64,000 nt of DNA from Acidobacteriota bacterium (lineage in GTDB: Bacteria > Acidobacteriota > UBA6911), in the NCBI GenBank assembly GCA_963664705.1, contig OY761556.1, forward strand, positions 32,001 through 96,000, read 5' to 3'. The notes beneath the pieces are model-generated. The model did not search any database and was not told the origin of the DNA. It saw only the letters and a list, made by a program, of their open reading frames with translations. Numbering within the stretch: position 1 is the stretch's first letter; every line of letters begins with the position of its first letter. Below, in pieces: positions 41,068 through 61,842 of this stretch. A program made the translations under genes and the position numbers.

Positions 41068-41183
41068 TCTCTGCCCCTTGGCTGGACCCACGGGTCTGCC
41101 CGCTGCTAAATTTCTATTAACTATTTGAAAATAGATAGGATCCGCCCATCATTCCGGCCCGATTTCAGGGTGCATCCGCCTAT

Positions 41184-41198
41184 TGGCATGCATCTTGC
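41184..41198 (+). promoter_or_regulatory. sigma54 (-24/-12) promoter of glnK-amtB
   Basis: TGGCAT-GCATC-TTGC. Confidence 0.8.
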
Positions 41199-41265
41199 AA
41201 TGCCTGGTGTGTACGGAGTTTGCGCATCTTGGTGAAGGAAATTGCATAGTGAGGGTGGTGTGCTT

Positions 41266-41604: not shown

Positions 41605-41635
41605 GCAGGTGGTGTTTCATACTCGAGGATATGCC

Positions 41636-43045
41636 ATGAATCGAAAGTATTTATTGCTGATTGTTGCGGTACTTCTTCTTTTGGAGATTGCGCCGGCTTT
41701 TGCGCAGTCCGATGTTGCCGCAAAGGCCATTGAACCCGCGGACGCCAGGATTGCCCGGCTGGAGGCTCAGGTGCAGGAAGCCAAGAGCGCCGGAGACAAC
41801 GGCTGGATGCTGGTCAGTTCCGCTCTTGTTCTCATGATGACCGGGCCTGGCCTTGCGCTTTTCTACGGTGGGCTTGTGCGGAAGAAAAATGTCCTGTCGG
41901 TCATGATGCAAAGTTTTATCCTCATGGCTGTTGTGACGGCGCTGTGGGTCATCGTCGGATACAGTCTGGCTTTTTCGCACGGCAATTCCTTCATCGGCGG
42001 ATTTGAGCATCTATTCCTGCACGGAGTAGGCGCGGCGCCGGATGCCGACTATGCTCCGACAATTCCCGCCCAGACCTTTATGGTCTATCAGCTCATGTTT
42101 GCCATCATCACGCCGGCCCTCATTACCGGCGCATTTGCCGAGCGGATGAAATTCAGCGCGATGCTGGCTTTCACGGTCATCTGGTTCTTCATTATCTACA
42201 CTCCGCTGGCGCACATGGTGTGGGGGAAAGGCGGCTTCCTGAATGCCGCGCTCGGCGGACGTATCCCCTGTCTCGATTTTGCCGGGGGCACGGTGGTTCA
42301 CATCTCCTCCGGTGTTTCCGCGTTGGTATGTGCCATTTTCCTGGGAAAGCGGATTGGATATCCGCGTGAGCCGATGCCTCCCCACAGCGTCGTTCTGAGC
42401 GTCATCGGTGCCTGCCTTTTGTGGGTGGGGTGGTTTGGCTTCAATGCCGGCAGCGCATTGTCTGCGGGTTCATTGGCCACGAGCGCCTTTGTCGCGACGC
42501 ATCTGAGCGCAGCGGCGGCAACACTTGGATGGACCGTCTCGGAATGGATGCGAACCGGCAAGCCCAGTGTATTGGGAGCCATTTCCGGATCGGTAGCCGG
42601 GCTGGTGGGGATAACGCCGGCGGCAGGTTTTGTCGGGCCTATGGCTGCTTTGGCCATTGGTCTGGTCGTTGGCGTTGTCTGTTACTTCATGGTCGCCAAG
42701 ATCAAGGGGCTTTTTGGCTATGATGACTCCCTGGATGCCTTTGGAGTTCATGGCGCCGGCGGGACGCTGGGGGCATTGTTGACGGGCGTGTTTGCCATCA
42801 GCGGCGTAAATGCAATTTTCAAGGATCCTCAAGGCAAAGCACTTCCGGTCGGACTGCTGGAAGGGAATGGACACCAGTTGCTGAATCAGTTTGCAGGTGC
42901 GCTGATCGCCTGGGTCATTGCCGCCATTGGAACCTATGTGATTCTGAAGATCGTGGACGCGACTATCGGACTCCGCGTTTCGCCGGATGACGAAATCACC
43001 GGGCTCGACCTCAGCCAGCACGGCGAAGAGGGATACAATATGTAG
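41636..43045 (+). CDS. amtB: Ammonium transporter
   Basis: GLALFYGG, QLMFAIITPAL, DFAGGTVVH, WFGFNAGS, DDSLDAFGVHG, HGEEGY. Confidence 0.96.
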   Translation: MNRKYLLLIVAVLLLLEIAPAFAQSDVAAKAIEPADARIARLEAQVQEAKSAGDNGWMLVSSALVLMMTGPGLALFYGGLVRKKNVLSVMMQSFILMAVVTALWVIVGYSLAFSHGNSFIGGFEHLFLHGVGAAPDADYAPTIPAQTFMVYQLMFAIITPALITGAFAERMKFSAMLAFTVIWFFIIYTPLAHMVWGKGGFLNAALGGRIPCLDFAGGTVVHISSGVSALVCAIFLGKRIGYPREPMPPHSVVLSVIGACLLWVGWFGFNAGSALSAGSLATSAFVATHLSAAAATLGWTVSEWMRTGKPSVLGAISGSVAGLVGITPAAGFVGPMAALAIGLVVGVVCYFMVAKIKGLFGYDDSLDAFGVHGAGGTLGALLTGVFAISGVNAIFKDPQGKALPVGLLEGNGHQLLNQFAGALIAWVIAAIGTYVILKIVDATIGLRVSPDDEITGLDLSQHGEEGYNM

Positions 43046-45468: not shown

Positions 45469-47277
45469 ATGACAGAGAAAATCCGGCCCACCACTGGAAT
45501 CGCTCAGGTCGATAAGGCAATCGGCGGCGTCATTGACGGCGATAACCTCGTCTGGGAAATCGACTCGGGGGTTGCCGGAGATCATTTCATCTCGCAGTTT
45601 GTCCGCGCCTGCGAACAAAGCGGCATTCCCATCGTGTATGTCAGTTTCAACCGTTCGCCTCAGACGATCGCGGCCAAATATGCCCGTCTCATGTCTCCCG
45701 GCCGTTTTTCGCTGATCGACTGCTTTTCATCGGGGAAGGGCAATTCCGACGAGATGTTCCTTAAGTTTTTCGATGATCCGGCGCGCAACTCTGTCCACGC
45801 CCCGGTGCACATCGCCGATCCCGCGGATCCCTCGCGACTCGAACAGGCACTCATTGAAGTGGGGACGCGAGGCGGCCGATCTGCGAATTATGTTTTCGAT
45901 TCCCTCACTGGAATGCTGGATTTGTGGGGGGACGAGAATCGTGTGGTGCGGTTGTTCGGCCATCTCTGTCCGCGCCTGTATGACCTTAATACCCTTGCCT
46001 ACTGGTTGATTGAAACGGAAGCGCATACGGAAGCCTTCCTGGCCAAAGTGCGGCATATCACCCAGGTGGTCATGGAGGTATCCCTCTCAAATGGTCAGAA
46101 ATCACTGACCGTCCACAAAGCATCCGGCCGAATTGCCGAAATCGGTGTGCCTCAACCTCTGGATCTCGGAGAGGGGATTGCCTTCCATGAGGGAGAACAG
46201 CGGCATTCGCCCGAAGTCGACCCGATGACCAAACGCGGCGAGGAATTGAGAAGAACCTATCGCGTTGACAGCATTGTCGGAGGCAGCGCCGCGATTCGCA
46301 GGCTCCTGGGTGTGGCCGCAACCGCTGCGCGGTCGCGCTCTTCCGTGCTTATCACGGGTGAGACCGGCACGGGGAAAGAACTCATCGCCAACGTTGTCCA
46401 CTACAACAGCGACCGGGCCTCGGGGCCGCTGGTCAAAGTCAATTGCGGCGCTCTTCCGGAAACACTCCTCGAGACGGAGCTGTTTGGCCATGTCAAAGGA
46501 GCTTTTACCGGCGCGGTTCGGGATTATGAAGGCCGATTCCAAGCGGCTGACGGCGGGACGCTTTTCCTGGATGAAGTCAGCGAAATGAGTCCGCGCCTTC
46601 AGGTGAAACTTCTGCGGGTCTTGCAGGAGCGGCAGTTTGAACCCGTTGGATCTACTCGAACCGTGACAGTGGATGTCCGAATCGTTGCCGCCACCGGCAG
46701 AGACCTCCGCGCGGAAATCCGCGCAGGCAGATTCAGACATGACCTCTTTTACCGGCTCAACGTGATCCCCGTTCATCTTCCTCCCCTGTCTGAACGGCGC
46801 GAAGACATCCCGCTCCTCGTGGATCACTTTCTCGAAAAGTACAATCGTGAGGCGGACCGCCAGGTTACGCGCGTCCCACGGGAAGTCCTCGACAAGTTCA
46901 TGGCCTATTCATGGCCTGGCAATATCCGTGAACTGGAGAATTGTATTGAACGCGCCGTCGTCATGAGTCCGGACAACGAGGTTTCACTCGACATACTCCC
47001 GGAGGAAATCCAGGAGTGCCGAACCGATCTCGCGGCCGCGCCCGAACCTGGGAAAGAACAAGACCCCAAAGATGAATTGCGCCAGTCGGTCATCCGGTTG
47101 CTGCTATCAAACGACGATCCTTCCGGCATGCGTACCCTTATCCTCGAGACCGTTGAGGAGACGCTTCTGCGCCAGTTGCTCGAGTCCGGCCGCTATAGCC
47201 AGCGAGAACTGGCAACCCTGCTATCGCTAAGCCGAGTCACGCTGCGGAAAAAGCTCGAACACTACAAAATATCCTGA
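45469..47277 (+). CDS. sigma54-dependent activator with an N-terminal RecA/KaiC-like domain
   Basis: GETGTGKE, ETELFGHVKGAFTGA, LFLDEV, WPGNIRELEN, C-terminal HTH; N-terminal TTGIAQVDKAIGG...YVFDSL. Confidence 0.9.
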   Translation: MTEKIRPTTGIAQVDKAIGGVIDGDNLVWEIDSGVAGDHFISQFVRACEQSGIPIVYVSFNRSPQTIAAKYARLMSPGRFSLIDCFSSGKGNSDEMFLKFFDDPARNSVHAPVHIADPADPSRLEQALIEVGTRGGRSANYVFDSLTGMLDLWGDENRVVRLFGHLCPRLYDLNTLAYWLIETEAHTEAFLAKVRHITQVVMEVSLSNGQKSLTVHKASGRIAEIGVPQPLDLGEGIAFHEGEQRHSPEVDPMTKRGEELRRTYRVDSIVGGSAAIRRLLGVAATAARSRSSVLITGETGTGKELIANVVHYNSDRASGPLVKVNCGALPETLLETELFGHVKGAFTGAVRDYEGRFQAADGGTLFLDEVSEMSPRLQVKLLRVLQERQFEPVGSTRTVTVDVRIVAATGRDLRAEIRAGRFRHDLFYRLNVIPVHLPPLSERREDIPLLVDHFLEKYNREADRQVTRVPREVLDKFMAYSWPGNIRELENCIERAVVMSPDNEVSLDILPEEIQECRTDLAAAPEPGKEQDPKDELRQSVIRLLLSNDDPSGMRTLILETVEETLLRQLLESGRYSQRELATLLSLSRVTLRKKLEHYKIS

Positions 47278-47531
47278 AAGCCGTTCAAGCCTGCCTATCC
47301 ATGCTTCAAATTAGGCCCGGCAAATCAAAAAACCGGTTTCTTTTTTAACCGAAACCTGCACCCTTGGGTCCCGTAATTTCCCGCGCCTGGTAAAAAAACT
47401 GTTCCATGTGAAAACAAAATGATCCATTTCTCGAAATTATTGGTTCTTTTGTATATGAAATATAATTTCATAAAACTTGCATGGTTTTGAAAAGATTAGG
47501 TGAAAAAATTTATTCTCAAGTCGAGCTTATT

Positions 47532-47546
47532 TGGCACGGGCATTGC
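47532..47546 (+). promoter_or_regulatory. sigma54 (-24/-12) promoter of the second Hdr/Met/Glt cluster
   Basis: TGGCAC-GGGCA-TTGC consensus match preceded by an AT-rich tract. Confidence 0.85.
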
Positions 47547-47593
47547 TAATAGAAACGCCGAACGGCAATAAAAGTTGGGAAAGGAAACGATCA

Positions 47594-47926
47594 ATGCCCA
47601 AGAACCCAAAATATTACGGTCTTTGTGAGACTTGCGAGCATGACGAAACCTGTACTTTAAGGCGCAGCTCGGTACTCAAGATCATTCAATGCGAGGAATT
47701 CTCGATTCAACCCACGGCTGCCGCGGAGCACTTTGTCAAGGACGAGGTTCTTCATGATGATTTGCAGGAACAGTCCCGCATGGGGTTGTGTGCGAACTGT
47801 CTGAATCTTCCAAGCTGTGGATTTCCAAATGCACGCCATGATGTCGTGCAGTGCGAAGAATACATCCTGGATGAAGCTGGAGTAATCCCGCCGATTCAAA
47901 AAGTACGGTCGGAATCCGCCGCATAA
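47594..47926 (+). CDS. Small Cys-rich protein with a duplicated CxxC-x5-C...CEE motif
   Basis: GLCETCEHDETC...IQCEEF and GLCANCLNLPSC...VQCEEY; RBS AAGGA. Confidence 0.78.
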   Translation: MPKNPKYYGLCETCEHDETCTLRRSSVLKIIQCEEFSIQPTAAAEHFVKDEVLHDDLQEQSRMGLCANCLNLPSCGFPNARHDVVQCEEYILDEAGVIPPIQKVRSESAA

Positions 47927-47948
47927 ATAGATTTAGGAAAGAGACAGA

Positions 47949-48479
47949 ATGGATACCCTCCCCGAGCAAGCTGCCATCACAGTTTTTTTGTGCGCCAATT
48001 GTGCCCGTCCCGGCCAGGTGCCGACATCTTCCGGGCGGACACGGCCTGTTGTCCCGAATTTCGAATGGACTTGTCCCGTCGAGCAGATAGTTGTTCCCTG
48101 TGCTGGACGTCTTCAGCCGGAGAATGTGCTGAAAGCCTTTGAGAAGGGTTCCAGTGTTGTATCCGTAATTGCGTGCCAGGAAGACAACTGCCATTACATT
48201 GAAGGCAGCCGTCGATGCACGCTTCGCGTGGATTATCTTCGCTCGCTTCTTGACGAAATCGGGCTTGGCGGAGATCGCCTGTTATCGTTCTCCCTGCCGG
48301 GCTCCGCATCCCAGGACTTGGCTTTGACTTCGGGTTTGCCCGCAATAAAGACAGCCCAGGATTCGCTCGCGACTCAAATCATTCTTATTCGCGATCAGGT
48401 TATGGCGACGCTCCAGTCGTGCCCGCCCAATCCGATGGCACAAATGCCGGCGGAAGCTTCCGTGGGAGGGGTGGAATAA
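47949..48479 (+). CDS. Divergent MvhD/FlpD-like [2Fe-2S] protein
   Basis: FLCANC, VPCAGRL, LKAFEKG, ACQEDNCHYIEGS, LDEIGL. Confidence 0.82.
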   Translation: MDTLPEQAAITVFLCANCARPGQVPTSSGRTRPVVPNFEWTCPVEQIVVPCAGRLQPENVLKAFEKGSSVVSVIACQEDNCHYIEGSRRCTLRVDYLRSLLDEIGLGGDRLLSFSLPGSASQDLALTSGLPAIKTAQDSLATQIILIRDQVMATLQSCPPNPMAQMPAEASVGGVE

Positions 48480-49369
48480 TGAACCGGTTTGCCAGTGCAT
48501 TGATGTCCCGCCAGTTGATTGTTTCGGCGGAGTGCCTGCCGCCCCGGGGTTCGGACCCGGAGGCGATCAAGGCTTTTTCCGCATCTCTTCCGGAACGGGT
48601 GAATGCCGTTGTTGTTGCGGATAACCCTGATGTAATCCGCGGATCCGCTCTTTCGACGGCTCGGCTTTTGTCGTGGGAAGGCAAGAAGAGCATTGTCCTT
48701 TCGATGGCTACACGTGATCGCAACCGGTTGGCTCTCCTGAGCGATGCTTTGGGCGCGGCGGCCCTGGATGTGGATGCAGTGCTTTGCATGAGCGGCAATC
48801 ACCAGTCCATCGGCGTGTGTCCCCAGGCTGCGGCCGCAAACGATTTTGACTCCATCCAGTTTACCCAGGCGCTGAAGAAACTGGTTCTTCATGGTGTGGG
48901 GCCCAATGGAAACGGCCTTGAACCCCGGCTCGAATTGCAGATTGGTGCGACAGCGCATCCCTACCTGCGTCCGTTGGACCTGAGTCTCTTCCGCCTCAGG
49001 AAGAAGATTCTTGCGGGAGCCGATTTTCTCTTCACGCAGGCGATCTTTGATCTTGGCGGGTTTTTTGAATGGATAAAGGGTGTGCAGGCTGCCGGGTTTG
49101 ACAAGAGGACGGCCATCATTGCCAGCGTTCTGCCGCTTGCAAGCGTCGACAAAGCGAGGGAATTGCAGAAGGCGCATACCTATGGGCCGGTTCCGGACAG
49201 CGTTGTGGAACGCATCAGCGGAGCTGCTCAGCCTGCTCGCGAAGGCGTGGCGATCGCAGCGGAGATAGCAAAGCAGTTGAAAAGTGTTCCGGAAATCCGT
49301 GGCATTCACATTCTCAACGGCGGTGATGATTCCCTGATCGCCGATGTCATAAAGCAGGCCGGAGTTTAG
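48479..49369 (+). CDS. metF: Divergent MetF-like methylene-THF reductase
   Basis: AECLPPRGSD, VADN, TRDRNRLALLSD, MSGNH, FTQ, GIHI; ATG overlaps the upstream stop. Confidence 0.8.
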   Translation: MNRFASALMSRQLIVSAECLPPRGSDPEAIKAFSASLPERVNAVVVADNPDVIRGSALSTARLLSWEGKKSIVLSMATRDRNRLALLSDALGAAALDVDAVLCMSGNHQSIGVCPQAAAANDFDSIQFTQALKKLVLHGVGPNGNGLEPRLELQIGATAHPYLRPLDLSLFRLRKKILAGADFLFTQAIFDLGGFFEWIKGVQAAGFDKRTAIIASVLPLASVDKARELQKAHTYGPVPDSVVERISGAAQPAREGVAIAAEIAKQLKSVPEIRGIHILNGGDDSLIADVIKQAGV

Positions 49370-49449
49370 TTCTGAATTTTCGGGCGTGAAGCGGAAGTCG
49401 CGGAATTCCCGTTCGTTATTTTTTGGCAATTTTTTCTGTAGAGACACAT

Positions 49450-50871
49450 ATGCCTGATCGTTACCACATTCATACGGTGCCCACGCCGGGGCGCTTCTAC
49501 CGGGTCGGAAAGTTCGGCGGTGTTGACTGGCGCGAGGACTGCTCCCGTTGTTCCAATTGCGTAAAGCGGCGCTGCTGCTATGACGTGTATGACCACGAGT
49601 CGGACCATAATCGGGATCCGTTCAGCTCCAGTCAGACGTTGAATGAATGCAAGGCCTGTTTCTCCTGTGTTCAGGGCTGCACGAAAGGCCTGCTAAGCCT
49701 TTCCGTCAATCCTGAATTCCTCGAAATGGGAGATGATTTCTGGAAGCCCGACGTAATCATGACCACATGGAATCAGGCCGAGACCGGCAAAATTCCTGTG
49801 TCCGGCGCCGGATATCGCGGCCGCTTTCATGGCCCTGGATTCGATTCCATCTGGACGGATATGTCTGAGATTGTTCGCCCCACGCGGGATGGAATTCATG
49901 GACGCGAATACATCTCTACCTCCGTGGATATCGGTCCCAAGCCGATGCGCCTGAGTTTTGCACCGGACGGGACTATGCTCTCGGCTCCTGCGAAACTCCT
50001 GGAATTGCAGATGCCCGCGGTTCTGGACATCCCGGCCTGGCCGGTGCAGCAACCGGCTCTTGCCCAAGCGCGCGCCGTGGCGGCCGAAGAACTGAAAACC
50101 GTGGCTGTGATGTATGCAAAGGATGCCGTGCTCCTGTCAATGGAATTGCGGCCTTTTGTTGCACCCATCATTGATGCGGAAGTGCCGGCGGGGATTCTCG
50201 ACGGGCGCTGGGCAATGATGCAACTGATTGATCGGGCGGACATTCTGAAGAATGCCGAGGCAATTCGGGCGACAAATCCCGAGATGATTCTATCTGTCCG
50301 GTTGCCGCTTGGCCCGGATACCACCGAGCGCCTCCTCGACCTTTTCCGCCGCGGGTTTAGAGTTTTTCATCTGTGCGCGGATTTGCACGGAAAGGAACTG
50401 ACGGAGGATTCCGTGTCCGCGCGTCATATCAAGGATGTTCTTCGGGAACTTCATTCCCGCCTTGTCAAAGAGGGGATCCGGGATGAAGCAACCCTGATCG
50501 TTGCCGGCGGAATCGCGCTGGCGGAGCATATGGCCAAATCCATTATTTGCGGCGCGGATCTCGTGGCTGCCGACACGGCTTTGATGGTGGCTCTTGGCTG
50601 TCGCGTGTGCCGTGACGCTCATGTGCCGGGACAGAAGAGCTGTGCCTGCCCGGCCGAACTGGACTCTGTAGACATCAATTATGCGGCCCAGCGCATCGTC
50701 AATCTGATGGGGGCATGGCACAGTCAGCTGATTGAAGTCCTCGGCGCGATGGGCATCCGCGAAGCGCGACGGTTGCGCGGCGAAATGGGCCGGGCCATTT
50801 TCATGGAAGAGATTGAAAAAGAAGCTTTTGGAGACCTTTACCGGGTCCGTCAGGAGCAGGTGAGTGCATAA
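49450..50871 (+). CDS. Glutamate-synthase-related FMN-barrel/Fe-S protein, degenerate paralog
   Basis: N-terminal CSRCSNC...C / CKACFSCVQGC; C-terminal IVAGGI...GAD...LGCRVC...LGAMG...LRG; central GltB motifs absent. Confidence 0.75.
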   Translation: MPDRYHIHTVPTPGRFYRVGKFGGVDWREDCSRCSNCVKRRCCYDVYDHESDHNRDPFSSSQTLNECKACFSCVQGCTKGLLSLSVNPEFLEMGDDFWKPDVIMTTWNQAETGKIPVSGAGYRGRFHGPGFDSIWTDMSEIVRPTRDGIHGREYISTSVDIGPKPMRLSFAPDGTMLSAPAKLLELQMPAVLDIPAWPVQQPALAQARAVAAEELKTVAVMYAKDAVLLSMELRPFVAPIIDAEVPAGILDGRWAMMQLIDRADILKNAEAIRATNPEMILSVRLPLGPDTTERLLDLFRRGFRVFHLCADLHGKELTEDSVSARHIKDVLRELHSRLVKEGIRDEATLIVAGGIALAEHMAKSIICGADLVAADTALMVALGCRVCRDAHVPGQKSCACPAELDSVDINYAAQRIVNLMGAWHSQLIEVLGAMGIREARRLRGEMGRAIFMEEIEKEAFGDLYRVRQEQVSA

Positions 50872-51122
50872 CAGCGGAGCGCGGAATCAGAAAACCGCAG
50901 ATCAGAATAAGACCTGTGCCTTTACAGGGCTTTCGGGGTTGTGTTCAGGCTCGGAGACATGTGCAGGCTCAACGCTATTTTCCCGCCACATCAGGGTCGC
51001 TCCTTCCGATATGGCAGTGACAAATAGCAGGGCGAGGGCCTGCAATTATGTTTCCCGAGCTGAAAGCCCGAGGCCCTGCAAGGGCACCAGGTTTACTGCT
51101 CCTTTTTAGCACAGGTGGGTGC

Positions 51123-52700
51123 ATGACGACAACTATTGCAAAAATCCAAATCCAAGATGATATCCAGCCTGAGACGGGTCATAGCGATTGGCCGCAGGAA
51201 TCGGTCCCTCGCGAGGTACGTCCGGTTCCCGACCGCTATCGCAATCCGATCGGCAAATACAAGGTGGATCGGCTTGCATCCTGCATATCCTGCGGGCGTT
51301 GCGCCGAGGTTTGCCAATACGGTGTGCACGTAAAACCGGAAGGCTACAAATACATGCTTCGGCCGCTGGATTACCGATGCGTGGGCCCGGCTTGCTCGGA
51401 ACGCGGCGGGGAATGCATCCATGAATGCCCCAAGAAGGCCCTGGTGTTGAGACTGAATCCGAACGTCGACTGCATGGGCGACCCGCGCTGGTCCAGTGAT
51501 CTGATTCTGTCAACGTGGTATCAGTCGGAAACAGGGCAAACACCACCGGCTCACCTGGAATACCGGCACGGAGACTCCGGCGGGGGTTTCGACCGGATGC
51601 GTTTCAAGTTTGAAATTCCGGGTCTTGAAACCCCGAAACCCGGCACCGTCTTCGACGCCAAAAAGGAAAATCCTGCGGATGTCGATACGGGTCTGGATCT
51701 GAATCGCCGGGACGATGGACGTCCTCAGGTCCACATTGATATCCCTATCTATGGCGGTGGAATGAGTTTCGGGTCCGTCAGCATTTACACGATTCTGGCA
51801 AAGGCCCGCTCTGCGGCTGCCTGGAATACATTCAGTTGTACCGGAGAAGGCGGCTATCCCGATCGCCTCAAACCATATGATGACCATATGATTACCCAGG
51901 TGGCTACCGGTCTCTTCGGAGTTCGGGAAGAGACAATTCAGCGGGTACGCATTGTCGAATTCAAGTATGCGCAGGGCGCTAAGCCCGGATTGGGTGGACA
52001 TCTCCTGGGGGACAAAAACACTCCGGCCGTGGCTCGTATGCGAGGCGCCGTCCCCGGGAACGCGCTGTTCAGCCCATTCCCGTTTCATAGCGTTTATAGC
52101 GTCGAAGACCACAAAAAGCACCTGGACTGGATAAAGGAAGTCAACCCGGACTGCCTTGTCAGTGTAAAGGTTTCGACTCCGACGGATGTAGACATGGTTG
52201 CGGTCGGAAGCTATTACGCGGGTGCGCACATCATTCACCTCGATGGAAGCTACGGCGGGACGGGTGCGGCTCCCGACATTGCAAAAAAGAACATTGCGAT
52301 GCCGATCGAGTATGGGATCCCCAAGGTTCACAAATTTCTCACCGCCGAGGGCATTCGTGAAAAGGTCACCCTGATTGCCTCCGGTGGTTGTCGTACTGCT
52401 TACGACGTGCTGAAAGCGATTGCGCTGGGTGCTGACGGGGTGGTGATCGGGACGGCCGAAATGGTTGCTCTTGGCTGCGTGCGGTGTGCCTGCTGTGAAA
52501 GCGGCCGCGGGTGCCCCAGGGGCATTGCGTCCACCGATACAGAACTGATCGAGCTGATGGATTTGGAATGGGCGACACAGAGACTGATCAACCTCCAGAA
52601 CGCCTGGCACGAACAGATGATTTCCGTCCTGAGGCAGCTTGGAATGGCTTCCATCCGGGAGTTGCGCGGTCGCAGTGATGTGCTTTGCTACTTGGATTAG
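51123..52700 (+). CDS. Archaeal-type glutamate synthase FMN subunit (GltB2/MgsC-like) with ferredoxin domain
   Basis: GGMSFGSVS, TGEGG, QVATGLFGV, QGAKPGLGGHL, DGSYGGTGAA, IASGG, CVRCACCESGRGCPRGIA. Confidence 0.88.
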   Translation: MTTTIAKIQIQDDIQPETGHSDWPQESVPREVRPVPDRYRNPIGKYKVDRLASCISCGRCAEVCQYGVHVKPEGYKYMLRPLDYRCVGPACSERGGECIHECPKKALVLRLNPNVDCMGDPRWSSDLILSTWYQSETGQTPPAHLEYRHGDSGGGFDRMRFKFEIPGLETPKPGTVFDAKKENPADVDTGLDLNRRDDGRPQVHIDIPIYGGGMSFGSVSIYTILAKARSAAAWNTFSCTGEGGYPDRLKPYDDHMITQVATGLFGVREETIQRVRIVEFKYAQGAKPGLGGHLLGDKNTPAVARMRGAVPGNALFSPFPFHSVYSVEDHKKHLDWIKEVNPDCLVSVKVSTPTDVDMVAVGSYYAGAHIIHLDGSYGGTGAAPDIAKKNIAMPIEYGIPKVHKFLTAEGIREKVTLIASGGCRTAYDVLKAIALGADGVVIGTAEMVALGCVRCACCESGRGCPRGIASTDTELIELMDLEWATQRLINLQNAWHEQMISVLRQLGMASIRELRGRSDVLCYLD

Positions 52701-52784
52701 TTTCAAATTCAGGGGTTTGCACCGCCGGTTTCTGAGCGGCAAACCGAGATTTGAAATGTGACATCTGGAATTTAGGGGAATTAC

Positions 52785-55385
52785 GTGAACGACATAGCAG
52801 AACGACTGTTGGCAACCCGCTCGCATGTATATCGCGGGCCTCAGATGCCCTTGATCAAATCAGCCGAAGAAGGGGGATGCGGTGTTACGGGGTTTGCCTG
52901 CACAATCCCATTGGCCGGCAGGTACATTTACGAACCTTCCATTCAGATGCAGAACCGAGGGAATGGAAAAGGCGGCGGCATTGCTGCCGTCGGTCTCGTG
53001 CCGGAGCAAATGGGGGTATCTCGCGATGTGCTGGACAGCCATTACCTGTTGCAGATTGCGCTGCTCGATCCCACCTGCCATGCGGATCTCGAACGACGGT
53101 ATGTCCTGCCGAATTTCGATGTGGCTCTTTCCTCAAGACAGCCGCACATCGACGATTACCGGGACATTCCCGGGCTGGACGTCCGGCCCCCGGATGTGCA
53201 CCGGTATGTCGTTCGCCCCAAGCCAGCGATACTGAAATCCTTTGCCGCGGAAAACGGACTCGAAAGTCTGCCGGCCCGAGATATTGAAGACGAATTCGTC
53301 TGGCGGAATTCCTATCGGCTCAATGATGAATACTACGCCTCTCTTGGAGAAAAACGGGCGTTTGTCCTCTCCCATAGCCGGGATCTTCTTGTTTTCAAGC
53401 TGGTGGGCTACGCCGAACAGAATGTCGAATACTATCAGTTGCAGGATTTCAAGGCACATGCATGGATCGCGCACCAGCGCTATCCAACCAAGGGCCGTGT
53501 CTGGCATCCCGGCGGGGCTCACCCGTTTGTCGGCCTGAACGAAGCCCTGGTGCATAACGGTGATTTTGCCAATTACTATTCCGTATGCGAATATCTCCGG
53601 CAAAGGAATATCCGCCAGCAGTTTTTGACGGACACGGAAGTGTCGGCGCAGCTCTTTGATCTTTGGGATCGCGTATACAAATATCCGCTTGAATACATCA
53701 TTGAAGCGCTCGCTCCGACAACGGAACTCGATTTTGATCAGCTCCCGCCGGAGAAGCAGGCTATCTATCGACAGATCCAGGCCACGCACATTCACGCTTC
53801 CCCGGACGGCCCGTGGTTTTTCATCATTGCCCGAAGCCAGCCCGACCAGAGACGAGTTCAACTGTTGGGCATCACCGATACCGCTATGCTGCGGCCCCAG
53901 GTTTTTGCCTTGTCCAATAATGACGATATTCAAATCGGTCTGATCTGTTCCGAGAAGCAGGCGATCGATGCAACGCTGCGCAGCCTGGCAAAGGAAGATA
54001 TGCGGTTCTGCCCGGTTGCCGACAAATACTGGAATGCCCGTGGCGGGTCCAGCACGGATGGTGGTGCCTTTATTTTCAGCGTCGATTCCGATCAGGAAGG
54101 ACGGAAGACGCTTGCGTGCACGGACAAGTTCGGACGGCCCGTCGTGATTAACTCCGGCTCCGTCCGTTGCGATCTGCCTTCGACCAACACGATAGAGAAA
54201 GAAGCGCCCGATGCATTGCGCGAACTGGTCAACCAGTGGCTGCAAAAAGGGAAGGTTGAGGATCTTTTCACATATGCCCTCGATCTTCCATCCTGGTCGT
54301 CCGGCGATCTGCAGCGTTTCTGCAAACTCGTCGTCGATGGGGCCGATAACGCCACATCGCGAAAAACGGCGATTGAACTGCTGACGATGCTTCGGGACCG
54401 GCGTTTTTATACCGGTGACAAGCGAAGAGCCACGGTGATTTGGGTTGTAGACAAGATGATAGAGGCTCTGTTTGACAGTGCGCCGCTGTTTGGCGAGCCG
54501 GTCAGCCGTTTCTGGCGCCGGGTCAACTGGAATACGCGGGATCAGGTAGTTGCGCCGCGTGCCGGAGAAGAATTGCTCCTGATTGATGCCCAGGAGTTTC
54601 CGCCGGAAGGCGACTATTGCGATGCTGTTCTTCTGAGACAGGCCTATCGGCTGGGTTGGAAGCAATTCATCGTATACCGGTTGCGTGGTCAGCGCTTTCA
54701 CGGGGCAGGTCTGGGCCCGGAAACCGGTTCGGTGCGCATCGATCTGTATGGATCCAACGGAGACTATACGGCGAGCGGCATGGATGGCCTGCAGTTGTAT
54801 ATTCACGGTAATGCACAAGATCAGGTTGCTCAGATTGCCAAGAGCGGAAAACTTGTCATTTACGGAGATGTTGGCCAGACCTTCATGTATGGAGCAAAAG
54901 GAGGCGAGGTTTACGTCCTGGGAAACGCTGCAGGCAGGCCGCTGATCAATGCGGTTGGACGTCCGCGCGTAGTCATCAATGGAACATGCCTGGATTTCCT
55001 GGCGGAATCTTTCATGGCCGGGGATCCGCTGCTCGGCGGGGGCTTCGTAATCGTGAATGGAATTGAGTTTGACGGCCGCGGCAATATCGTGCCTCAACCG
55101 GCTCCCTATCCCGGCAGCAACCTCTTTTCTCTTGCCAGCGGGGGTGCCATCTATATTCGAGATCCTCATCAGCAGGTAGTCGAACGGCAGCTGAATGGCG
55201 GCGTTTTCTCCTCTTTGACCGACAAAGACTGGAGGCTCATCCGCCCCTATCTCGTAGAAAACGAGAGCCTGTTTGGAGTCCGGATCCAAGACCTCCTGAC
55301 CGTTGATGGCGTTGTAAAACCGCCACACGAAGTCTATCGAAAGGTAAGTGCAGTGAAACTTGCCGTGCTTGCCAAGTCGAAGTAG
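52785..55385 (+). CDS. Class II glutamine amidotransferase fused to a GXGXG beta-helix (GltB1+GltB3 / MgsA+MgsB-like)
   Basis: EEGG-CGVTG (Ntn Cys), RGNGKGG, AHQRYPT, AHPF, HNG, TDTE; C-terminal GDVGQTFMYGAKGG and ASGGAIYIR. Confidence 0.85.
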   Translation: MNDIAERLLATRSHVYRGPQMPLIKSAEEGGCGVTGFACTIPLAGRYIYEPSIQMQNRGNGKGGGIAAVGLVPEQMGVSRDVLDSHYLLQIALLDPTCHADLERRYVLPNFDVALSSRQPHIDDYRDIPGLDVRPPDVHRYVVRPKPAILKSFAAENGLESLPARDIEDEFVWRNSYRLNDEYYASLGEKRAFVLSHSRDLLVFKLVGYAEQNVEYYQLQDFKAHAWIAHQRYPTKGRVWHPGGAHPFVGLNEALVHNGDFANYYSVCEYLRQRNIRQQFLTDTEVSAQLFDLWDRVYKYPLEYIIEALAPTTELDFDQLPPEKQAIYRQIQATHIHASPDGPWFFIIARSQPDQRRVQLLGITDTAMLRPQVFALSNNDDIQIGLICSEKQAIDATLRSLAKEDMRFCPVADKYWNARGGSSTDGGAFIFSVDSDQEGRKTLACTDKFGRPVVINSGSVRCDLPSTNTIEKEAPDALRELVNQWLQKGKVEDLFTYALDLPSWSSGDLQRFCKLVVDGADNATSRKTAIELLTMLRDRRFYTGDKRRATVIWVVDKMIEALFDSAPLFGEPVSRFWRRVNWNTRDQVVAPRAGEELLLIDAQEFPPEGDYCDAVLLRQAYRLGWKQFIVYRLRGQRFHGAGLGPETGSVRIDLYGSNGDYTASGMDGLQLYIHGNAQDQVAQIAKSGKLVIYGDVGQTFMYGAKGGEVYVLGNAAGRPLINAVGRPRVVINGTCLDFLAESFMAGDPLLGGGFVIVNGIEFDGRGNIVPQPAPYPGSNLFSLASGGAIYIRDPHQQVVERQLNGGVFSSLTDKDWRLIRPYLVENESLFGVRIQDLLTVDGVVKPPHEVYRKVSAVKLAVLAKSK

Positions 55386-55406
55386 CGCGGATTTTTGGAC
55401 CTGAAC

Positions 55407-58400
55407 ATGGAACAGCAAATGGACATTGAGAAGGTCGGGGCGGTGCTGGTGTGCGGCGCAGGGATTGCGGGCATCCAGGCATCGCTGGATCTGGCGGACA
55501 GCGGATTCAAAGTATATCTGCTGGAGCATACCGCCGCCATTGGCGGCCGCATGGCTCAACTGGACAAAGCCTATCCAACAGGCGACTGTTCGATGTGCAT
55601 TCTTTCGCCACGCCTGGTGGAATGTGCCAGAAACAGGAATATCGAAATCATCACCCTCGCCGATCTGGAAAGTGTTTCCGGAGAGCCCGGCAACTTCAAA
55701 GTCAAGATACGGCAGAATCCCCGTTACATTGATGCAAGGAAGTGTGATGCCTGCGGCGATTGCTCGGCGGTTTGCCCGGTCAGTCTTTCGAGCGAATTCG
55801 ATTGCGGCATGGGCGAAAAAAAGGCGGTTTCGCTGCCCTATCCCCAGGCAATTCCCGGTATCTTCAGTATTTCGAAAGCCCAGGGGCAGGTGCCTTGCAG
55901 ATCTCTTTGCCCGGCCGGAGTTAATGTCCCAGGCTTTGTCGCGCTGGTTGCCGCCGGCAAATTCAAAGAAGCTTTCGAGCTTATCCGTTTGCGTTGTTCG
56001 CTCCCCGCTGTCTCCGGGCGTATATGCCGTCATTCCTGCCAGGATAAATGCAATCGGGGTGAAGTAGATGAATCCGTCTCCATTCGCCACCTGGAAAGAT
56101 ATGTAGCCGACTACGTGCAACAGAACCCGGATCAATACCCGGAGCGCTCCGGATCCGTGATTGCATCGGGCAAAAGGGTTGCCATTATCGGATCAGGGCC
56201 TGCCGGATTGACGGCTGCTTCGGATCTGTCTCTGATGGGGTATGGCGTTACCTTGTTTGAGGCCAAACCGCAGCTTGGCGGTATGTTGCGATACGGGATC
56301 CCTGAATACCGGCTACCCAAGGAAATTCTCGATAGGGATGTTCGGCATATCCTGGAGTTGGGAGTAGAGGTCAGAACCAATACTCCGATTGAAAAACCGG
56401 GTGATCTTCTCAAATCCCGGCAAGCTGACGGTGCTTCAGCCAATGCCGCTGACTTTGACGCGGTGTTTGTATCGACCGGGGCCTGGCAAAGCCTCAAACC
56501 GGGTATTCCCGGGGAGGATGCCGGCGGAGTCTGGGAGGGATTGAAATTCCTTTACGCGGTAAATTCCGGTAGCAGTTTCGAGATCGGACCCGAAGTGCTG
56601 GTCATCGGGGGGTCCGCTTTAGCCATCGATACGGCCCGATGCGCGCTGAGAGTGCCCGGAGTGAAATCGGTGCAGCTAGCCTGCCTCGAAAATGCGGGCG
56701 AATTACGCGCGGGTACGGACCATGTCGCGGAAGCGATTGCCGAGGGCATTGAGATTCACTATAGCCTTGGGCCAACCACTGTCAATGCAAAGGACAGCCG
56801 GGTCTCCTCGGTAAGATTTCGCGCCTGCACCAGCCTGTATGACGAATATAAGAGATTTGATCCGCTGTTTGACGATTCATCCATCCGAACTATTTCCGCC
56901 GACACTGTCATTATCGCAAGTGGCCGGGCAGTCGATGCAAAGGGCTTTGGGCTCGAAATGCGGCCCGGCGGGCGCATCCTAGCCGATAAAGATACGCTGG
57001 CAACCGGTGTCCGGGGAGTGTTTGCGGGAGGGGACGCCGTTCTGGGCCCGGCATCGATGGTGGATGCAATGGCTCACGGGCATAAGGCGGCTGCATCCAT
57101 TGATGCCTTCATTCGAGGCAGCGCATCCATTCGCAGTATGTCAAAAGCATCTGCCGGGGATACTGCGAGTACCGCTTCCGTGCACTTTGCCCATAACCCG
57201 AAGCCATGGGTATCCAAGCAGTCTCACAGCCCTATCGCGCGCGCAAAAGAATCTTCCAGACCGCAGGATCATTCGGAAATATTTCTTGGCTATTCGCATG
57301 ATGCCGCCATTGCCGAGGCAAAACTGTGCCTGGCCTGTGGCTTATGCAGTGAATGCCTGTTGTGTGTGAAGGCGTGCTCGGCCGATGCCCTGGTTCATGA
57401 TCAGCAGGCGACATCCCTTGAGGTCGAGGTCGGGAGCATCATCCTCGCGCCGGGCGTCGAAGAACTCGAGTCTGCCGCAGCCCGAAAATTCGGGCTGGGT
57501 AAATATGCGAATGTTGTCTCCGGTCTGCAGTTTGAACGGATGCTTGCGGCGGCCGGGCCGTCCGGACGCCTTCATCGTCATTCGGATGCCGGCGAAGTCA
57601 GAAGCATTGCCTTTATTCAATGTGTCGGCGGTCGTGAAGGGGATGCGGACTATTGCTCTTCGATTTGCTGTATGAATACGGCAAAGGCGGCTTTGGGTGC
57701 GTTGGAGCGATCGGCTGCGGGAGCTATGGAAGTTACGATATTCTGCCGCGAAGTCCGTTCCTTTGGGAAAGAATCGGACGCCTATATTCGCAGGGCAAAG
57801 CAGGAAAATGGCTTGCATTACCTGCGGGCTGTTCCATCCAATCTTTGGGAGACGGGTGAGACCGGCAGGCTGAAGATTGCCTGGCCGGGAAAGGATGGCG
57901 TATCCGAGCAGGAGTTCGACCTGGTTGTTCTCAGTACCGGGGCACAGGTATCCGCCGGCGCCAGGGATATGGCCTCCCGGATTGGTTTGCAGCTGAATAG
58001 CTTTGGTTTTGTCCAGACGGACAGGATGTCTCCATTTGCGACATCCCGACCAGGGATTTTCGTCGCCGGCTCCTTTCAGGAACCCAAGGACATATCCGAA
58101 TCGGTCGCGCAGGCTTCCGGCGCAGCCGCCTGCTCCATGAGCCTGTTGACGGCTGTCCGGGGCACAATGACTCGGCGCCATGAGTATCCCTGGGAAAGAG
58201 ATGTTGCCGATGAGTCGCCCCGGATTGGCGTTTTTGTCTGCCGTTGCGGACACAACATTGCGGATGTTGTGGACGTTGAACTGGTTGCCAGCAAAGCGGC
58301 GAAGATGCCCGGCGTGTGCCATGCAGAGGTGAGCACCTATACATGCTCGGATACCAATCAGCAGCATATCCGCTCCCTCATTCGTAAACACCGTCTCAAC

Positions 58401-59906
58401 CGTCTGGTGGTTGCATCCTGTTCATCGCGAACCCATGAAATGCTATTCCGGGAGACCCTGCGTGAGAGCGGGCTGAACCAGTACCTGTTTGCTATGACGA
58501 ACATTCGAGACCAATGCTCCTGGGTTCATAAGGACAACCCGTTGGAGGCCACCGCCAAGGCCGTGGATCTTGTCTCCATGGCCATTGCCCGAGCCCGTTT
58601 GCTGCGGGCATTTCCCCTCCATGAGCTCGAGGTCACAGCCTCCGCTCTGATTATCGGGGGCGGGCTTGCGGGGATGACCTCGGCACTGAATCTGGCCGAC
58701 CAGGGGTTCAAGGTGCACCTGGTGGAGAGGGAACCTGCGCTGGGAGGACAACTCCGAAACCTGCAGTCCGATCTGGAGCGGGATAATATCCAGGATGAAT
58801 TGAAAGTCCTGGTGTCGCGGGTTTCGTATCATCCCAACGTGACCGTTCACAGGAACTCGATTCTTGTGCGAACCTCCGGTCAGGTAGGAAATTTCGTCAG
58901 CGTTCTGTCTGCTGCAGGCAAGGAACAAACGGTCAAGCATGGTGTTGTGATTGTTGCCACCGGTGGTCGCGAACGTTCCACGACTCGATTCCTATGCGGG
59001 GATGACTCGCGCGTGGTCACTCAGAGGGCGCTTGAATCGGCATTGTCAGGAGGGAATCTCCCATCAGAGCTGACCGGTAAAAAGGCTCCTTCCGTTGTGA
59101 TGATTCAATGCGTCGACAGCCGGAATGCGGATAATCCTTACTGCAGCCGGGTCTGTTGTTCGGAAGCGATCAAAAATGCTCTTGAACTCAAGCGCCGCAG
59201 ACCGGATGCAGATATTGCCATCCTCAACCGGGATATCCATACATACGGTTCCAGAGACGATTACTTCAGGCAGGCGCGCAACAAAGGGATCCAGTTCGTC
59301 CGGTACTCGGAGAGCCGGGAGCCCCTGGTTGCAAACGAGAGTGGAGTGCTTCAGGTGAGAGTAACGGAAAATGACACCGGGCGCGAACTGGCTTATCACC
59401 CGGATCTGCTGGTCCTGTCGACCGGCATTGCCCCGGATGCCGGGAATGCTGATATCGCCGGGATCCTCCGTTGTGCGCTAACGGCGGAAGGATTCTTCCT
59501 CGAAGCCCACCCGAAACTCAGGCCTGTGGATCTTGCCAATGAAGGGGAGTTTGTCTGTGGCCTGGCGCATTCGCCCCGCTTCATGGACGAAACAATTGCG
59601 CAAGCCCATGCCGTCGCCGGACGCGCAGCAAGGATCCTGTCGAAGACTCAGATGGAGATTGTCGGACAGGTTTCCTATGTCGAGCCGGCCAACTGTGTCG
59701 CATGCGCGACCTGCGTAAAGATCTGTCCCTATGGCGCACCCATGATCAATGCCTTGGGGAAGTCGGAGATCCAGGCGGCAAAATGCATGGGGTGCGGCAG
59801 TTGTGTTGCAGCATGTCCTGCAAGGGCGATGGCACTCCAGCATCAGGAAGGCAGCACTATGATCGCCATGCTCGATGAAATGCGGGCAAGCGGAGGATTG
59901 GAATGA
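55407..59906 (+). CDS. hdrA: Second large HdrA (HdrL-type)
   Basis: Collinear paralog of 13182..17666: GAGIAG, LDKAYPTGDCSMC, IGSGPAG, IQCV...CC twice, NIRDQCSWVH, EAHPKLRPVD. Confidence 0.92.
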   Translation: MEQQMDIEKVGAVLVCGAGIAGIQASLDLADSGFKVYLLEHTAAIGGRMAQLDKAYPTGDCSMCILSPRLVECARNRNIEIITLADLESVSGEPGNFKVKIRQNPRYIDARKCDACGDCSAVCPVSLSSEFDCGMGEKKAVSLPYPQAIPGIFSISKAQGQVPCRSLCPAGVNVPGFVALVAAGKFKEAFELIRLRCSLPAVSGRICRHSCQDKCNRGEVDESVSIRHLERYVADYVQQNPDQYPERSGSVIASGKRVAIIGSGPAGLTAASDLSLMGYGVTLFEAKPQLGGMLRYGIPEYRLPKEILDRDVRHILELGVEVRTNTPIEKPGDLLKSRQADGASANAADFDAVFVSTGAWQSLKPGIPGEDAGGVWEGLKFLYAVNSGSSFEIGPEVLVIGGSALAIDTARCALRVPGVKSVQLACLENAGELRAGTDHVAEAIAEGIEIHYSLGPTTVNAKDSRVSSVRFRACTSLYDEYKRFDPLFDDSSIRTISADTVIIASGRAVDAKGFGLEMRPGGRILADKDTLATGVRGVFAGGDAVLGPASMVDAMAHGHKAAASIDAFIRGSASIRSMSKASAGDTASTASVHFAHNPKPWVSKQSHSPIARAKESSRPQDHSEIFLGYSHDAAIAEAKLCLACGLCSECLLCVKACSADALVHDQQATSLEVEVGSIILAPGVEELESAAARKFGLGKYANVVSGLQFERMLAAAGPSGRLHRHSDAGEVRSIAFIQCVGGREGDADYCSSICCMNTAKAALGALERSAAGAMEVTIFCREVRSFGKESDAYIRRAKQENGLHYLRAVPSNLWETGETGRLKIAWPGKDGVSEQEFDLVVLSTGAQVSAGARDMASRIGLQLNSFGFVQTDRMSPFATSRPGIFVAGSFQEPKDISESVAQASGAAACSMSLLTAVRGTMTRRHEYPWERDVADESPRIGVFVCRCGHNIADVVDVELVASKAAKMPGVCHAEVSTYTCSDTNQQHIRSLIRKHRLNRLVVASCSSRTHEMLFRETLRESGLNQYLFAMTNIRDQCSWVHKDNPLEATAKAVDLVSMAIARARLLRAFPLHELEVTASALIIGGGLAGMTSALNLADQGFKVHLVEREPALGGQLRNLQSDLERDNIQDELKVLVSRVSYHPNVTVHRNSILVRTSGQVGNFVSVLSAAGKEQTVKHGVVIVATGGRERSTTRFLCGDDSRVVTQRALESALSGGNLPSELTGKKAPSVVMIQCVDSRNADNPYCSRVCCSEAIKNALELKRRRPDADIAILNRDIHTYGSRDDYFRQARNKGIQFVRYSESREPLVANESGVLQVRVTENDTGRELAYHPDLLVLSTGIAPDAGNADIAGILRCALTAEGFFLEAHPKLRPVDLANEGEFVCGLAHSPRFMDETIAQAHAVAGRAARILSKTQMEIVGQVSYVEPANCVACATCVKICPYGAPMINALGKSEIQAAKCMGCGSCVAACPARAMALQHQEGSTMIAMLDEMRASGGLE

Positions 59907-60400
59907 AGGAGCTGAACCGGGATGTGAAAAGCGGCAGCGTTTCGGTCTCCGATACCTGTGCCAATACTCAGTGGGCACCGGAGATTCTGGCATTCTGCTG
60001 CGAATATTGCGCCCATTCGGCTGCAGCTTTAGCCGGATCCAAGCGGATCCAATACCCCACCGGTGTGCGGATTATTCCCGCACCATGTACCGGAAAAATC
60101 GAAATGGAGCATATTCTCGAAGCCTTCGAGAAGGGAGTGGATGGAATCCTTGTTGTTGGCTGTCTCGAAGGTGGCTGCCATTTCCTGGAAGGTAACCTGC
60201 GGGCGCGCAAGCGCACCGAGCGCGTCTGCGAGATACTTGATGAAATCGGTCTTGGAGGGGGGCGCCTCAAGATGGTGAACCTCTCTGATTCCATGGCTTC
60301 GGAATTTGTGCAGGAAATGCACGAGATGCTGAAAACTGCCAGAGCCCTGGGCCCGAATCCGCTGAAATCAAAACATAATGAAAGTGCAGGGGATCTATGA
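59903..60400 (+). CDS. mvhD: MvhD/FlpD [2Fe-2S] subunit (Cys form)
   Basis: AFCCEYCAHSAA, PCTGK, GCLEGGCHFLEGN. Confidence 0.92.
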   Translation: MKELNRDVKSGSVSVSDTCANTQWAPEILAFCCEYCAHSAAALAGSKRIQYPTGVRIIPAPCTGKIEMEHILEAFEKGVDGILVVGCLEGGCHFLEGNLRARKRTERVCEILDEIGLGGGRLKMVNLSDSMASEFVQEMHEMLKTARALGPNPLKSKHNESAGDL

Positions 60401-61065
60401 TCGTTGCTTCACCAAAGTCAATTACTGAACTCAAAAGCATCATTTCCGGACACAAAAAGGTCCTGTTTGCAGGATGCGGGACTTGTGTCACCGTCTGCCT
60501 GGCTGGTGGTGAACGAGAGGTCAGCATAGCCGCCTATTCCGTTCGAATGGCTCGCAAACTCGAGCGAAATCCGGTGGAAATTTCTCAGATCACCATTGAA
60601 CGCCAATGCGAAAATGAATTCATCAAAGAGCTGGCGGAACCTGCAAGCAAGGTTGAAGCGATTGTCTCATTTGGCTGCGGTGCCGGCGTACAGGCAATTG
60701 CGGAACGATTTCCTGATAAACCGGTCTATGCCGGACTCAATACTCAGTTTCTGGGTGTACTTGAGGAACAGGCTATCTGGACCGAAAAATGCATGGGGTG
60801 CGGTGATTGTATGCTGGCGCACTTCGGAGGTATCTGCCCGGTAACCCGATGCGCCAAACGTCTGTTGAACGGTCCCTGCGGAGGTTCCCTGGAGGAACGC
60901 TGTGAAATCGATCCGGACCGGCCGTGCGCATGGCAGCTTATCTATACCCGTCTCAAAAATATCGGTCAGCTTGAAAAACTGGAAGATATCGTGCCGCCCA
61001 AAGACTGGAGCACGGCATGGTACAACGGCGCGCGGAAAGTAATTCGCAAGGAACACAAAGTCTAG
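60397..61065 (+). CDS. metV: MTHFR small Fe-S/Zn subunit
   Basis: GCGTCVTVC, ERQC, CPVTRCAKRLLNGPCGG, CAW. Confidence 0.92.
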   Translation: MIVASPKSITELKSIISGHKKVLFAGCGTCVTVCLAGGEREVSIAAYSVRMARKLERNPVEISQITIERQCENEFIKELAEPASKVEAIVSFGCGAGVQAIAERFPDKPVYAGLNTQFLGVLEEQAIWTEKCMGCGDCMLAHFGGICPVTRCAKRLLNGPCGGSLEERCEIDPDRPCAWQLIYTRLKNIGQLEKLEDIVPPKDWSTAWYNGARKVIRKEHKV

Positions 61066-61704: not shown

Positions 61705-61842
61705 TCTTTCTCCTTATTGAGATTTATGCACCCTACTGACCGGCGGCCAATCCGGGCGCGGTTGCGTGATAAAGTCGGAAAGACCCAGCGAGCCATCGGA
61801 ACTCGTGGTTGTGCCAATGTCCAATGGCTCGCAAAAAGGTTT

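Follow-up and report, generated by a model that had tools for sequence, protein, structure and literature searches.

The window analysed here, 64,000 nucleotides of contig OY761556.1 from an Acidobacteriota bacterium, contains at 47594..61065 an operon that joins the genes of a split glutamate synthase (glutamine:2-oxoglutarate aminotransferase, GOGAT) to genes of the Hdr, Mvh and Met families. An earlier note on this DNA had described nine co-oriented genes behind a sigma-54 promoter, and an open reading frame (ORF) check of the window finds all of them in place. Eight of the nine ORFs match the Pfam families expected from that description (FlpD/MvhD twice, methylenetetrahydrofolate reductase (MTHFR), Glu_synthase twice, first weakly and then strongly, GATase_6 with GXGXG, HdrA with a GltD-like insert, and MetV), and the Cys-rich ORF at the front belongs to no family. 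The genes follow one another with gaps of 22, -1, 80, 251, 84, 21, -4 and -4 nt, the ATG of the metF-like gene at 48479 overlapping the mvhD1 stop by 1 nt, and neither hdrB nor hdrC is present in the operon. The three Glt proteins (DEG, B2 and B1/3) are referred to below as the trio. Our preferred reading, held with reasonable rather than high confidence, is that the operon encodes a glutamine-dependent glutamate synthase of three proteins that would assemble like one GltB and probably receive electrons via a MetV/MvhD Fe-S relay borrowed from MetFV-HdrABC-MvhD, the folate-reductase complex of acetogens. The features of the operon are as follows.

47532..47547, forward strand: sigma-54 promoter, TGGCAC-N5-TTGCT (motif match)
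47594..47926, forward strand: Cys-rich protein of 110 amino acids, two CxxC-type repeats, no family (sequence, family search)
47949..48479, forward strand: MvhD1, [2Fe-2S] adaptor (PF02662)
48479..49369, forward strand: MetF-like flavoprotein (family match, residue alignment)
49450..50871, forward strand: DEG, N-terminal 2x[4Fe-4S] ferredoxin domain and non-catalytic barrel with an invariant SEIVRPTRD loop (motifs, structure model)
51123..52700, forward strand: B2, ferredoxin domain and flavin mononucleotide (FMN) synthase domain with intact GOGAT motifs GEGG, AQGAKPG, YSVED and CxxCxxC...C (motifs)
52785..55385, forward strand: B1/3, N-terminal-nucleophile (Ntn) glutamine amidotransferase fused to a GXGXG beta-helix, nucleophile Cys32 after a propeptide (motifs, model)
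55407..59906, forward strand: HdrL, HdrA with a GltD-like insert and a second HdrA half (family match, alignment)
59903..60400, forward strand: MvhD2, partner of HdrL (PF02662)
60397..61065, forward strand: MetV, Fe-S/Zn protein (family match, Cys conservation)

The identity of the trio as a GOGAT is well supported by motifs and structure models. AQGAKPG, GEGG and the Glu of YS[VI]ED are kept in 95/95 B2 sequences and the glutaminase motif HNGD in 81/81 B1/3 sequences (both counts include a few duplicated loci), and Cys32 of B1/3 is invariant in 44/44. B2 has the FMN-barrel residues for 2-oxoglutarate and FMN, the E978 loop and the Fe-S cysteines; across the trio the equivalents of Cys1, K937, R957, E978 and K999 of Azospirillum brasilense GltB are kept, with the numbering checked on the A. 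brasilense sequence and the roles of the individual residues taken by us to be those of GltS. DEG has lost the catalytic motifs, and within the Met-linked group it retains its ferredoxin cysteines and three C-terminal cysteines. The S-x-I-V-R-P motif of DEG is invariant across 40 sequences; the larger count of 105/105 is partly circular, since those loci were found with that motif.

DEG and B2 are naturally fused in six full-length proteins and at loci L043, L044, L046, L047 and L115. The AlphaFold2 model of one such fusion (P0122, predicted template modelling score (pTM) 0.90) superposes in a single alignment on residues 451-1171 of A. brasilense GltB (Z 33.6, rmsd 3.3 Å, 624 aligned), a range that corresponds, in the sections of PMC8097209 that treat it, to the central and synthase domains lining the ammonia tunnel. 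The B1/3 model (pTM 0.87) aligns to GltS from residue 1 to about 1500 (Z 27.9, rmsd 3.2 Å, 573 aligned), covering the amidotransferase and the C-terminal beta-helix together and placing Cys32 on Cys1. Furthermore, the DEG loop SEIVRPTRD..RE aligns with SQVTNPSIDPLRE of an archaeal-type GltB2 (E 2.8e-7, DEG-loop profile), and the same motif is plain in the GltB central domain (SQVTNPPIDSLRE), while it occurs in 0/87 B2 sequences. Sequence and predicted structure thus show B1/3 as glutaminase plus beta-helix, B2 as the FMN synthase site, and DEG in the central-domain place with the loop that B2 has lost. The three Glt genes likely make up one complete glutamate synthase, with all four GltB domains in the same predicted geometry, and DEG, which the earlier note had taken for a degenerate GltB2, is on these models the counterpart of the GltB central domain and not a relic. 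Presumably DEG and B2 go back to the duplication of a GltB2 that had both roles, each copy having kept one of them. A FastTree phylogeny of 37 sequences (16 of 95 B2, 12 of 105 DEG, 2 window proteins and 7 references; midpoint root) leaves an independent origin of DEG and of the GltB central domain without resolution, and section 6.1 of the review PMC8097209 likewise leaves open whether the GltB central domain came from duplication of the FMN barrel.

Within the window genus, whose members are labelled Acidobacteriota, the amidotransferase fusion was matched in 20/24 genomes, and the metF-like, DEG, B2, B1/3 and metV genes are all present in the 15 loci fetched with flanks. None of these 15 carries hdrB or hdrC; 7 have a full-length HdrL, 4 a shortened one and 4 none at all. 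MetV is the most conserved operon gene (median identity to the window 85%), followed by B2 and B1/3 at about 80% and by HdrL, MetF-like and MvhD1 at 54-59%. The Cys-rich protein, whose database matches are unnamed clusters only, occurs among the loci examined only in the window genus and its close relative L073. Beyond the genus, DEG was found in 15/301 genomes of a phylum-wide draw, and a GTDB scan gave at least 595 confirmed matches, the best 80 of which were examined and span about 13 phyla, including Chloroflexota, Desulfobacterota, Planctomycetota, Bacteroidota, Actinomycetota and Myxococcota; there is no cultured carrier among the named matches. Upstream of the trio, the 71 scorable loci have mvhD plus metF (64), mvhD alone (5) or neither (2). 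Downstream, the 55 scorable loci continue with hdrC/hdrB (44), directly with hdrA (4), with metV (4) or with none of these (3). When four hdrCB-type loci were extended, mvhD-metV followed hdrL in two, and in the other two hdrL looked broken or truncated and mvhD and metV were not detected.

The usual operon is mvhD-metF-DEG-B2-B1/3-hdrC-hdrB-hdrL, then mvhD-metV where seen, and the window operon is a trimmed copy from a genus that has lost hdrBC. Because the arrangement is kept in all 15 genus loci and across many phyla, it is not due to chance, and the Glt-Hdr/Met linkage that the earlier note had proposed to check by synteny is borne out. Its further statement that Glt replaces HdrBC holds for the window operon and its genus and is not typical of the system, as most of the scorable relatives carry hdrC/hdrB.

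As judged from gene content, the electron input is modular, consisting of a GltD-type HdrL, a NuoF-type HdrA, MetFV alone or a GlcD-like flavoprotein. Most loci have a GltD-like insert in HdrA; in eight (L090, L091, L100, L102, L110, L119, L122, L125) a NuoF-like one takes its place. The Desulfobacterota-type loci L095, L098, L101, L104 and L129 have mvhD, the Glt trio and metV/metF and no hdr genes. Of 12 loci of more distant Acidobacteriota, 7 have the gene of a GlcD-like FAD/Fe-S protein immediately before DEG and no Hdr/Met gene in the stretch, and in P0155 and P0161 this protein is fused to the DEG N-terminus. Since other electron modules thus sit directly upstream of DEG or are fused to its N-terminus, DEG is the probable electron entry port. 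This GlcD/Dld-like FAD-Fe-S wiring (L037, L038, L040, L042, L043, L044, L047 and L048, seven loci by direct search), often accompanied by an Lrp/AsnC regulator, suggests a glutamate synthase driven by 2-hydroxy acids. A class-I glutamine amidotransferase gene recurs in L084, L099, L106, L117 and L127; in L106, where its position was checked, it immediately precedes the operon.

The proteins that would connect the trio to the Hdr part retain their cofactor ligands. MvhD1 keeps all four Cys ligands (C51, C76 and C81 invariant, C15 conserved in at least 90% of 49 sequences), and MetV keeps 13 Cys in 22/22. The MetF-like protein keeps the equivalents of Glu28 and Gln183, and the folate-binding Asp120 equivalent is Asn; the consulted part of PMC9900621 describes this Asp as invariant in MTHFR and essential for folate binding and activation. 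The Asp is found in 11/81 Glt-linked MetFs, the other 70 having varied replacements, versus 24/24 unlinked MetFs of the same genomes (best matches to the canonical copy, 10 of them from one genus). Because this residue is usually lost, the linked MetF is probably a relay and not a folate enzyme. For MetVF-type enzymes, reduced ferredoxin is reported as donor in vitro in the relevant part of PMC9430772. We consider physical coupling of the trio to the Met/Mvh relay likely.

In the proposed mechanism, B1/3 would hydrolyse glutamine, the ammonia would travel along a tunnel with DEG and B2 as its lining, and the FMN of B2 would reduce 2-iminoglutarate, with electrons presumably entering at the DEG ferredoxin domain. 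The MetF-like protein would have turned from a folate enzyme into a flavin or scaffold partner of MetV. Where all ten genes are present, NAD(P)H is the probable donor, feeding in by way of HdrL-MvhD2, and HdrBC would take part as they do in the Moorella complex. In the window genus, the loss of HdrBC and the apparently eroded NAD(P)H site of HdrL (see below) make it more likely that reduced ferredoxin is the donor or that electrons arrive in trans, e.g., from the canonical HdrL at 13182-17666, and in the window genome the MetV and MvhD relay would feed DEG and B2. A GOGAT fed through an Hdr/Mvh/Met module, one of the two alternatives of the earlier note, is therefore the best fit. Methyl-tetrahydrofolate (methyl-THF) as a donor in the window genome is not supported, because the MetF-like protein lacks the folate-binding Asp.

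Several observations weigh against the preferred reading. The Hdr/Met part is not obligatory, since 12/12 loci of the more distant Acidobacteriota (several of them short), and L074/L075 too, have the trio but no neighbouring Hdr/Met gene. Even the Sporomusa MetVF was, as far as the consulted part of PMC9430772 describes, not copurified with HdrBCA-MvhD. The window genome also has a canonical gltB (1517 aa) and gltD, and the canonical GltB central domain was found in 37/66 carriers searched, which makes the operon a redundant GOGAT in many carriers. Genes of nitrogen metabolism lie near only 9/56 loci with at least 6 kb upstream, and the sigma-54 box, present in 0/67 loci outside the genus and the close relative L073, is a genus trait. 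Finally, the DEG-loop profile gave no match to GltB itself, and neither DEG nor B2 reached significance when compared by profile with the GltB central domain; the link between DEG and the central domain therefore rests on predicted structure and the shared motif.

The HdrL protein raises the possibility of an electron-bifurcating GOGAT, in which HdrL would split the electrons of NAD(P)H between 2-iminoglutarate (high potential) and a ferredoxin or HdrB branch (low potential) and so save energy in nitrogen assimilation. The parts of PMC9430772 and PMC13514486 that deal with bifurcating HdrA give E356 and K409 as its marks; their equivalents are kept in both halves of the window HdrL (E710/K760 and E1210/K1256) and in 40/46 related HdrL N-halves, all 41 linked HdrB proteins examined have intact CCG motifs, and with textbook potentials, 2 NADH + ferredoxin + glutamine + 2-oxoglutarate would yield about -14 to -24 kJ/mol. 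However, the signature residues are no proof of bifurcation, and the window genus lacks HdrBC and has shortened or lost HdrL in 8 of its 15 loci. Moreover, the NAD(P)H-binding GGGN of the GltD-like insert reads GGSA in the window HdrL and is kept in 0/12 genus HdrL proteins versus 22/32 outside the genus, for which an eroded NAD(P)H site and a decaying HdrL input are the best reading. We regard bifurcation as possible but unlikely overall, and as more plausible for the ten-gene form than for the window form. Similarly speculative, and to be taken as a tentative proposal, is a wider view in which the trio would add a fourth class to the glutamate synthases, one that is widespread and heterotrimeric. 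Its second barrel would act as a plug-in electron port and would be a living intermediate, part of the way from a duplicated FMN domain to the central domain of GltB. The ten-gene form with HdrL would be the first enzyme of nitrogen assimilation to bifurcate electrons, regenerating reduced ferredoxin as glutamate is made.

The operon could also encode two co-transcribed but independent machines, one a three-piece GOGAT that depends on ferredoxin and the other a divergent MetFV-Hdr oxidoreductase that acts on a different substrate. This would account for the trio standing alone or with other partners in many genomes, for the ordinary Met-complex order of hdrC-hdrB-hdrL-mvhD-metV and for the ferredoxin domains that B2 and DEG themselves possess; it leaves unexplained why an extra mvhD and a relocated metF directly precede DEG in nearly all scorable loci, why MetV equals the catalytic subunits in conservation and is retained when hdrL is lost, and why loss of the MetF Asp is specific to Glt-linked copies, and we consider it rather unlikely. 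A GOGAT driven by methyl-THF, in which MetFV would oxidise methyl-THF and pass electrons via MvhD1 to the synthase, is energetically feasible (about -26 kJ/mol, using -200 mV from PMC9430772 together with textbook values), and the Asp is kept at all four loci with MetFV and without Hdr (L095, L098, L101, L129), so that a methyl-THF-fed subtype may exist elsewhere; given the replaced Asp in the window genome and in most linked MetFs, we judge this very improbable as the general explanation. The Asp loss also argues against the second alternative of the earlier note, an anaerobic methylamine/N-methylglutamate pathway tied to the folate pool and using an enzyme like the N-methylglutamate synthase (Mgs) MgsABC, which is likewise a split GltB homologue; folate-related genes are indeed adjacent here. 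The active-site motifs are those of GOGAT: context-defined MgsC (L137, L138) reads HPDWTGPDD and has no Fe-S Cys motif, against HSVYSVED and CxxCxxC in B2, and MgsA reads HTRMATES against HQRYPTKG in B1/3. In the 37-sequence tree, which provides the FMN-subunit phylogeny suggested in the earlier note, B2 forms its own clade and MgsC falls elsewhere (support 1.0). The genome gave no match to GmaS (E 1e-6) or DmmA and one weak match to an Mgd subunit (27%), and as gmaS context only two glutamine-synthetase-like matches were found in 109 loci. The methylamine route is, on this evidence, hardly credible.

Returning to the preferred reading of a relay-fed glutamate synthase, its expression in the window genus is probably sigma-54-dependent and tied to nitrogen supply, as suggested by the promoter sequence and its surroundings. 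The sigma-54 box has 17 genome-wide matches versus 6 for a reversed control and is kept in 12/14 same-genus loci with an upstream region available; a sigma-54 activator gene adjoins the operon in 10/15 same-genus loci and is likely the activator of the operon. The upstream features are as follows.

41184..41199, forward strand: sigma-54 -24/-12 box before glnK-amtB (sequence)
41266..43045, forward strand: glnK (P-II) and amtB (family match)
45469..47277, forward strand: sigma-54 activator with GAFTGA motif (family match); KaiC/RecA-like N-terminal region (by eye, weak)
47388..47427, forward strand: pair of conserved TGGNA...TNCCA-like inverted repeats, candidate activator binding site (by eye, 13 aligned upstream regions)

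A GGTT-N8-AACC palindrome upstream of the operon is not conserved (2/13 upstream regions). The end of amtB lies 4.5 kb upstream of the operon, in agreement with the earlier note, and glnK-amtB directly abuts the activator in L026, L027, L032 and L049. In the window, a DUF5916/CBM9 gene (43083-45302, minus strand), probably a later insertion, separates amtB from the activator. Repeated TACA-N4/5-TGTA-like sites at 40910-41080, upstream of the glnK sigma-54 box, are unlike the repeats upstream of the operon, which suggests that glnK-amtB and the operon are under different activators. Within the operon, the 251-nt gap between DEG and B2 (50872-51122) contains a G+C-rich hairpin at 51027-51043, of a kind no commoner than in shuffles, and the two genes overlap in several relatives. 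Two tandem cyclophilin-type peptidyl-prolyl isomerase genes (61159-62703, minus strand) are convergent with the operon end.

Nitrogen genes around the trio are recurrent, yet found at a minority of loci: amtB/glnK near 10/80, NrpR upstream in 4/109 and a glutamine-synthetase-like gene in 2/109, with an NrpR box in 1/85 upstream regions. In 29/66 carriers no canonical GltB central domain was found, these being mostly incomplete metagenome-assembled genomes (MAGs) and one (G342) having a broken-looking copy. Glutamate dehydrogenase was present in 4/5 carriers checked. The record of G344 is a single chromosome; there PF01645 matches strongly in B2 and DEG alone, a glutamine synthetase is present, and neither glutamate dehydrogenase nor another GltB was matched, which fits the trio being its glutamate synthase. 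The window genome has, in addition, a glutamine synthetase of GSIII size, two further metVF pairs and, at about 4,623,000-4,628,000 of C1, nif-type genes (NifB-like and nitrogenase-cofactor-like ORFs, by eye) beside a third P-II gene, and the organism may thus fix nitrogen. The canonical operon hdrC-hdrB-hdrL-mvhD-metV-metF is present at 10913-19177, where the earlier note had placed it; in its mvhD (about 12690-13160, minus strand), the codon for a conserved Cys is replaced by an in-frame TGA (CCEF-stop-A) that probably encodes selenocysteine, and ARAGORN gives three tRNA-SeC candidates in the genome.

The operon is thus genuine and conserved, and it seems not to have been characterised before. 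Its glutamate synthase has a new architecture, and the electron supply is unusual in being modular; in line with the earlier note, we found no characterised complex of this composition in the literature searched, whose coverage excluded most subscription papers and bioRxiv supplements. The glutamine synthetase-GOGAT cycle is the main route of assimilation at low ammonia. If our reading is true, the operon would give uncultured anaerobes a means of powering nitrogen assimilation that has not been described. The three-piece form is present in MAGs of about 13 phyla and is the only glutamate synthase found in some genomes. DEG, still recognisable as an FMN-barrel paralogue and predicted in the central-domain position, makes the origin of the central domain a testable question. 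If HdrL bifurcates, flavin-based bifurcation would extend to nitrogen assimilation, and Hdr-type Met complexes would gain a candidate acceptor in the synthase. For annotation, a Glt-linked metF should not be counted as evidence for the methyl branch of the Wood-Ljungdahl pathway.

Among known systems, Mgs (L137, L138) is likewise a three-gene split GltB homologue, from which the window system differs in its active-site motifs, its clade, its possession of the Fe-S motif absent from MgsC and its context, which has no gmaS or mgd. The archaeal/clostridial-type GltB1/B2/B3 (L134, Monoglobus record) similarly has a separate amidotransferase, a ferredoxin-fused FMN subunit, a GXGXG domain and a similar H-x-R-Y-P-T motif, but there the catalytic motifs and the SQVTNP loop reside together in one GltB2, two roles that the window system divides between B2 and DEG; its B1 and B3 are separate where those of the window are fused, and its B2 is only about 33% identical. 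All four domains of GltB, as known from GltBD (A. brasilense, PDB 1ea0/2vdc/6s6s) and ferredoxin-dependent GltS (Synechocystis, 1llw/1ofd), are also present in the window trio, and a GltD-like module is present as in GltBD, though inside HdrL and with no free GltD. Unlike both, the window system has three chains, with the amidotransferase and beta-helix fused and the central-domain equivalent a separate Fe-S protein, both of its barrels carry 2x[4Fe-4S] domains, and Hdr/Mvh/Met genes are linked to it. Compared with the Hdr-type MTHFR MetVF-HdrCBA-MvhD (Moorella thermoacetica, Sporomusa ovata), the Glt-linked operons contain three Glt genes and a second MvhD in addition, their metF stands at the front and mostly lacks the folate-binding Asp, and the window copy is devoid of hdrBC; most relatives of the window operon nevertheless share the MTHFR gene set and order hdrC-hdrB-hdrA(L)-mvhD-metV, and the large HdrA of Moorella has, according to the section of PMC9430772 that describes it, the E/K signature in both halves, as does the window HdrL.

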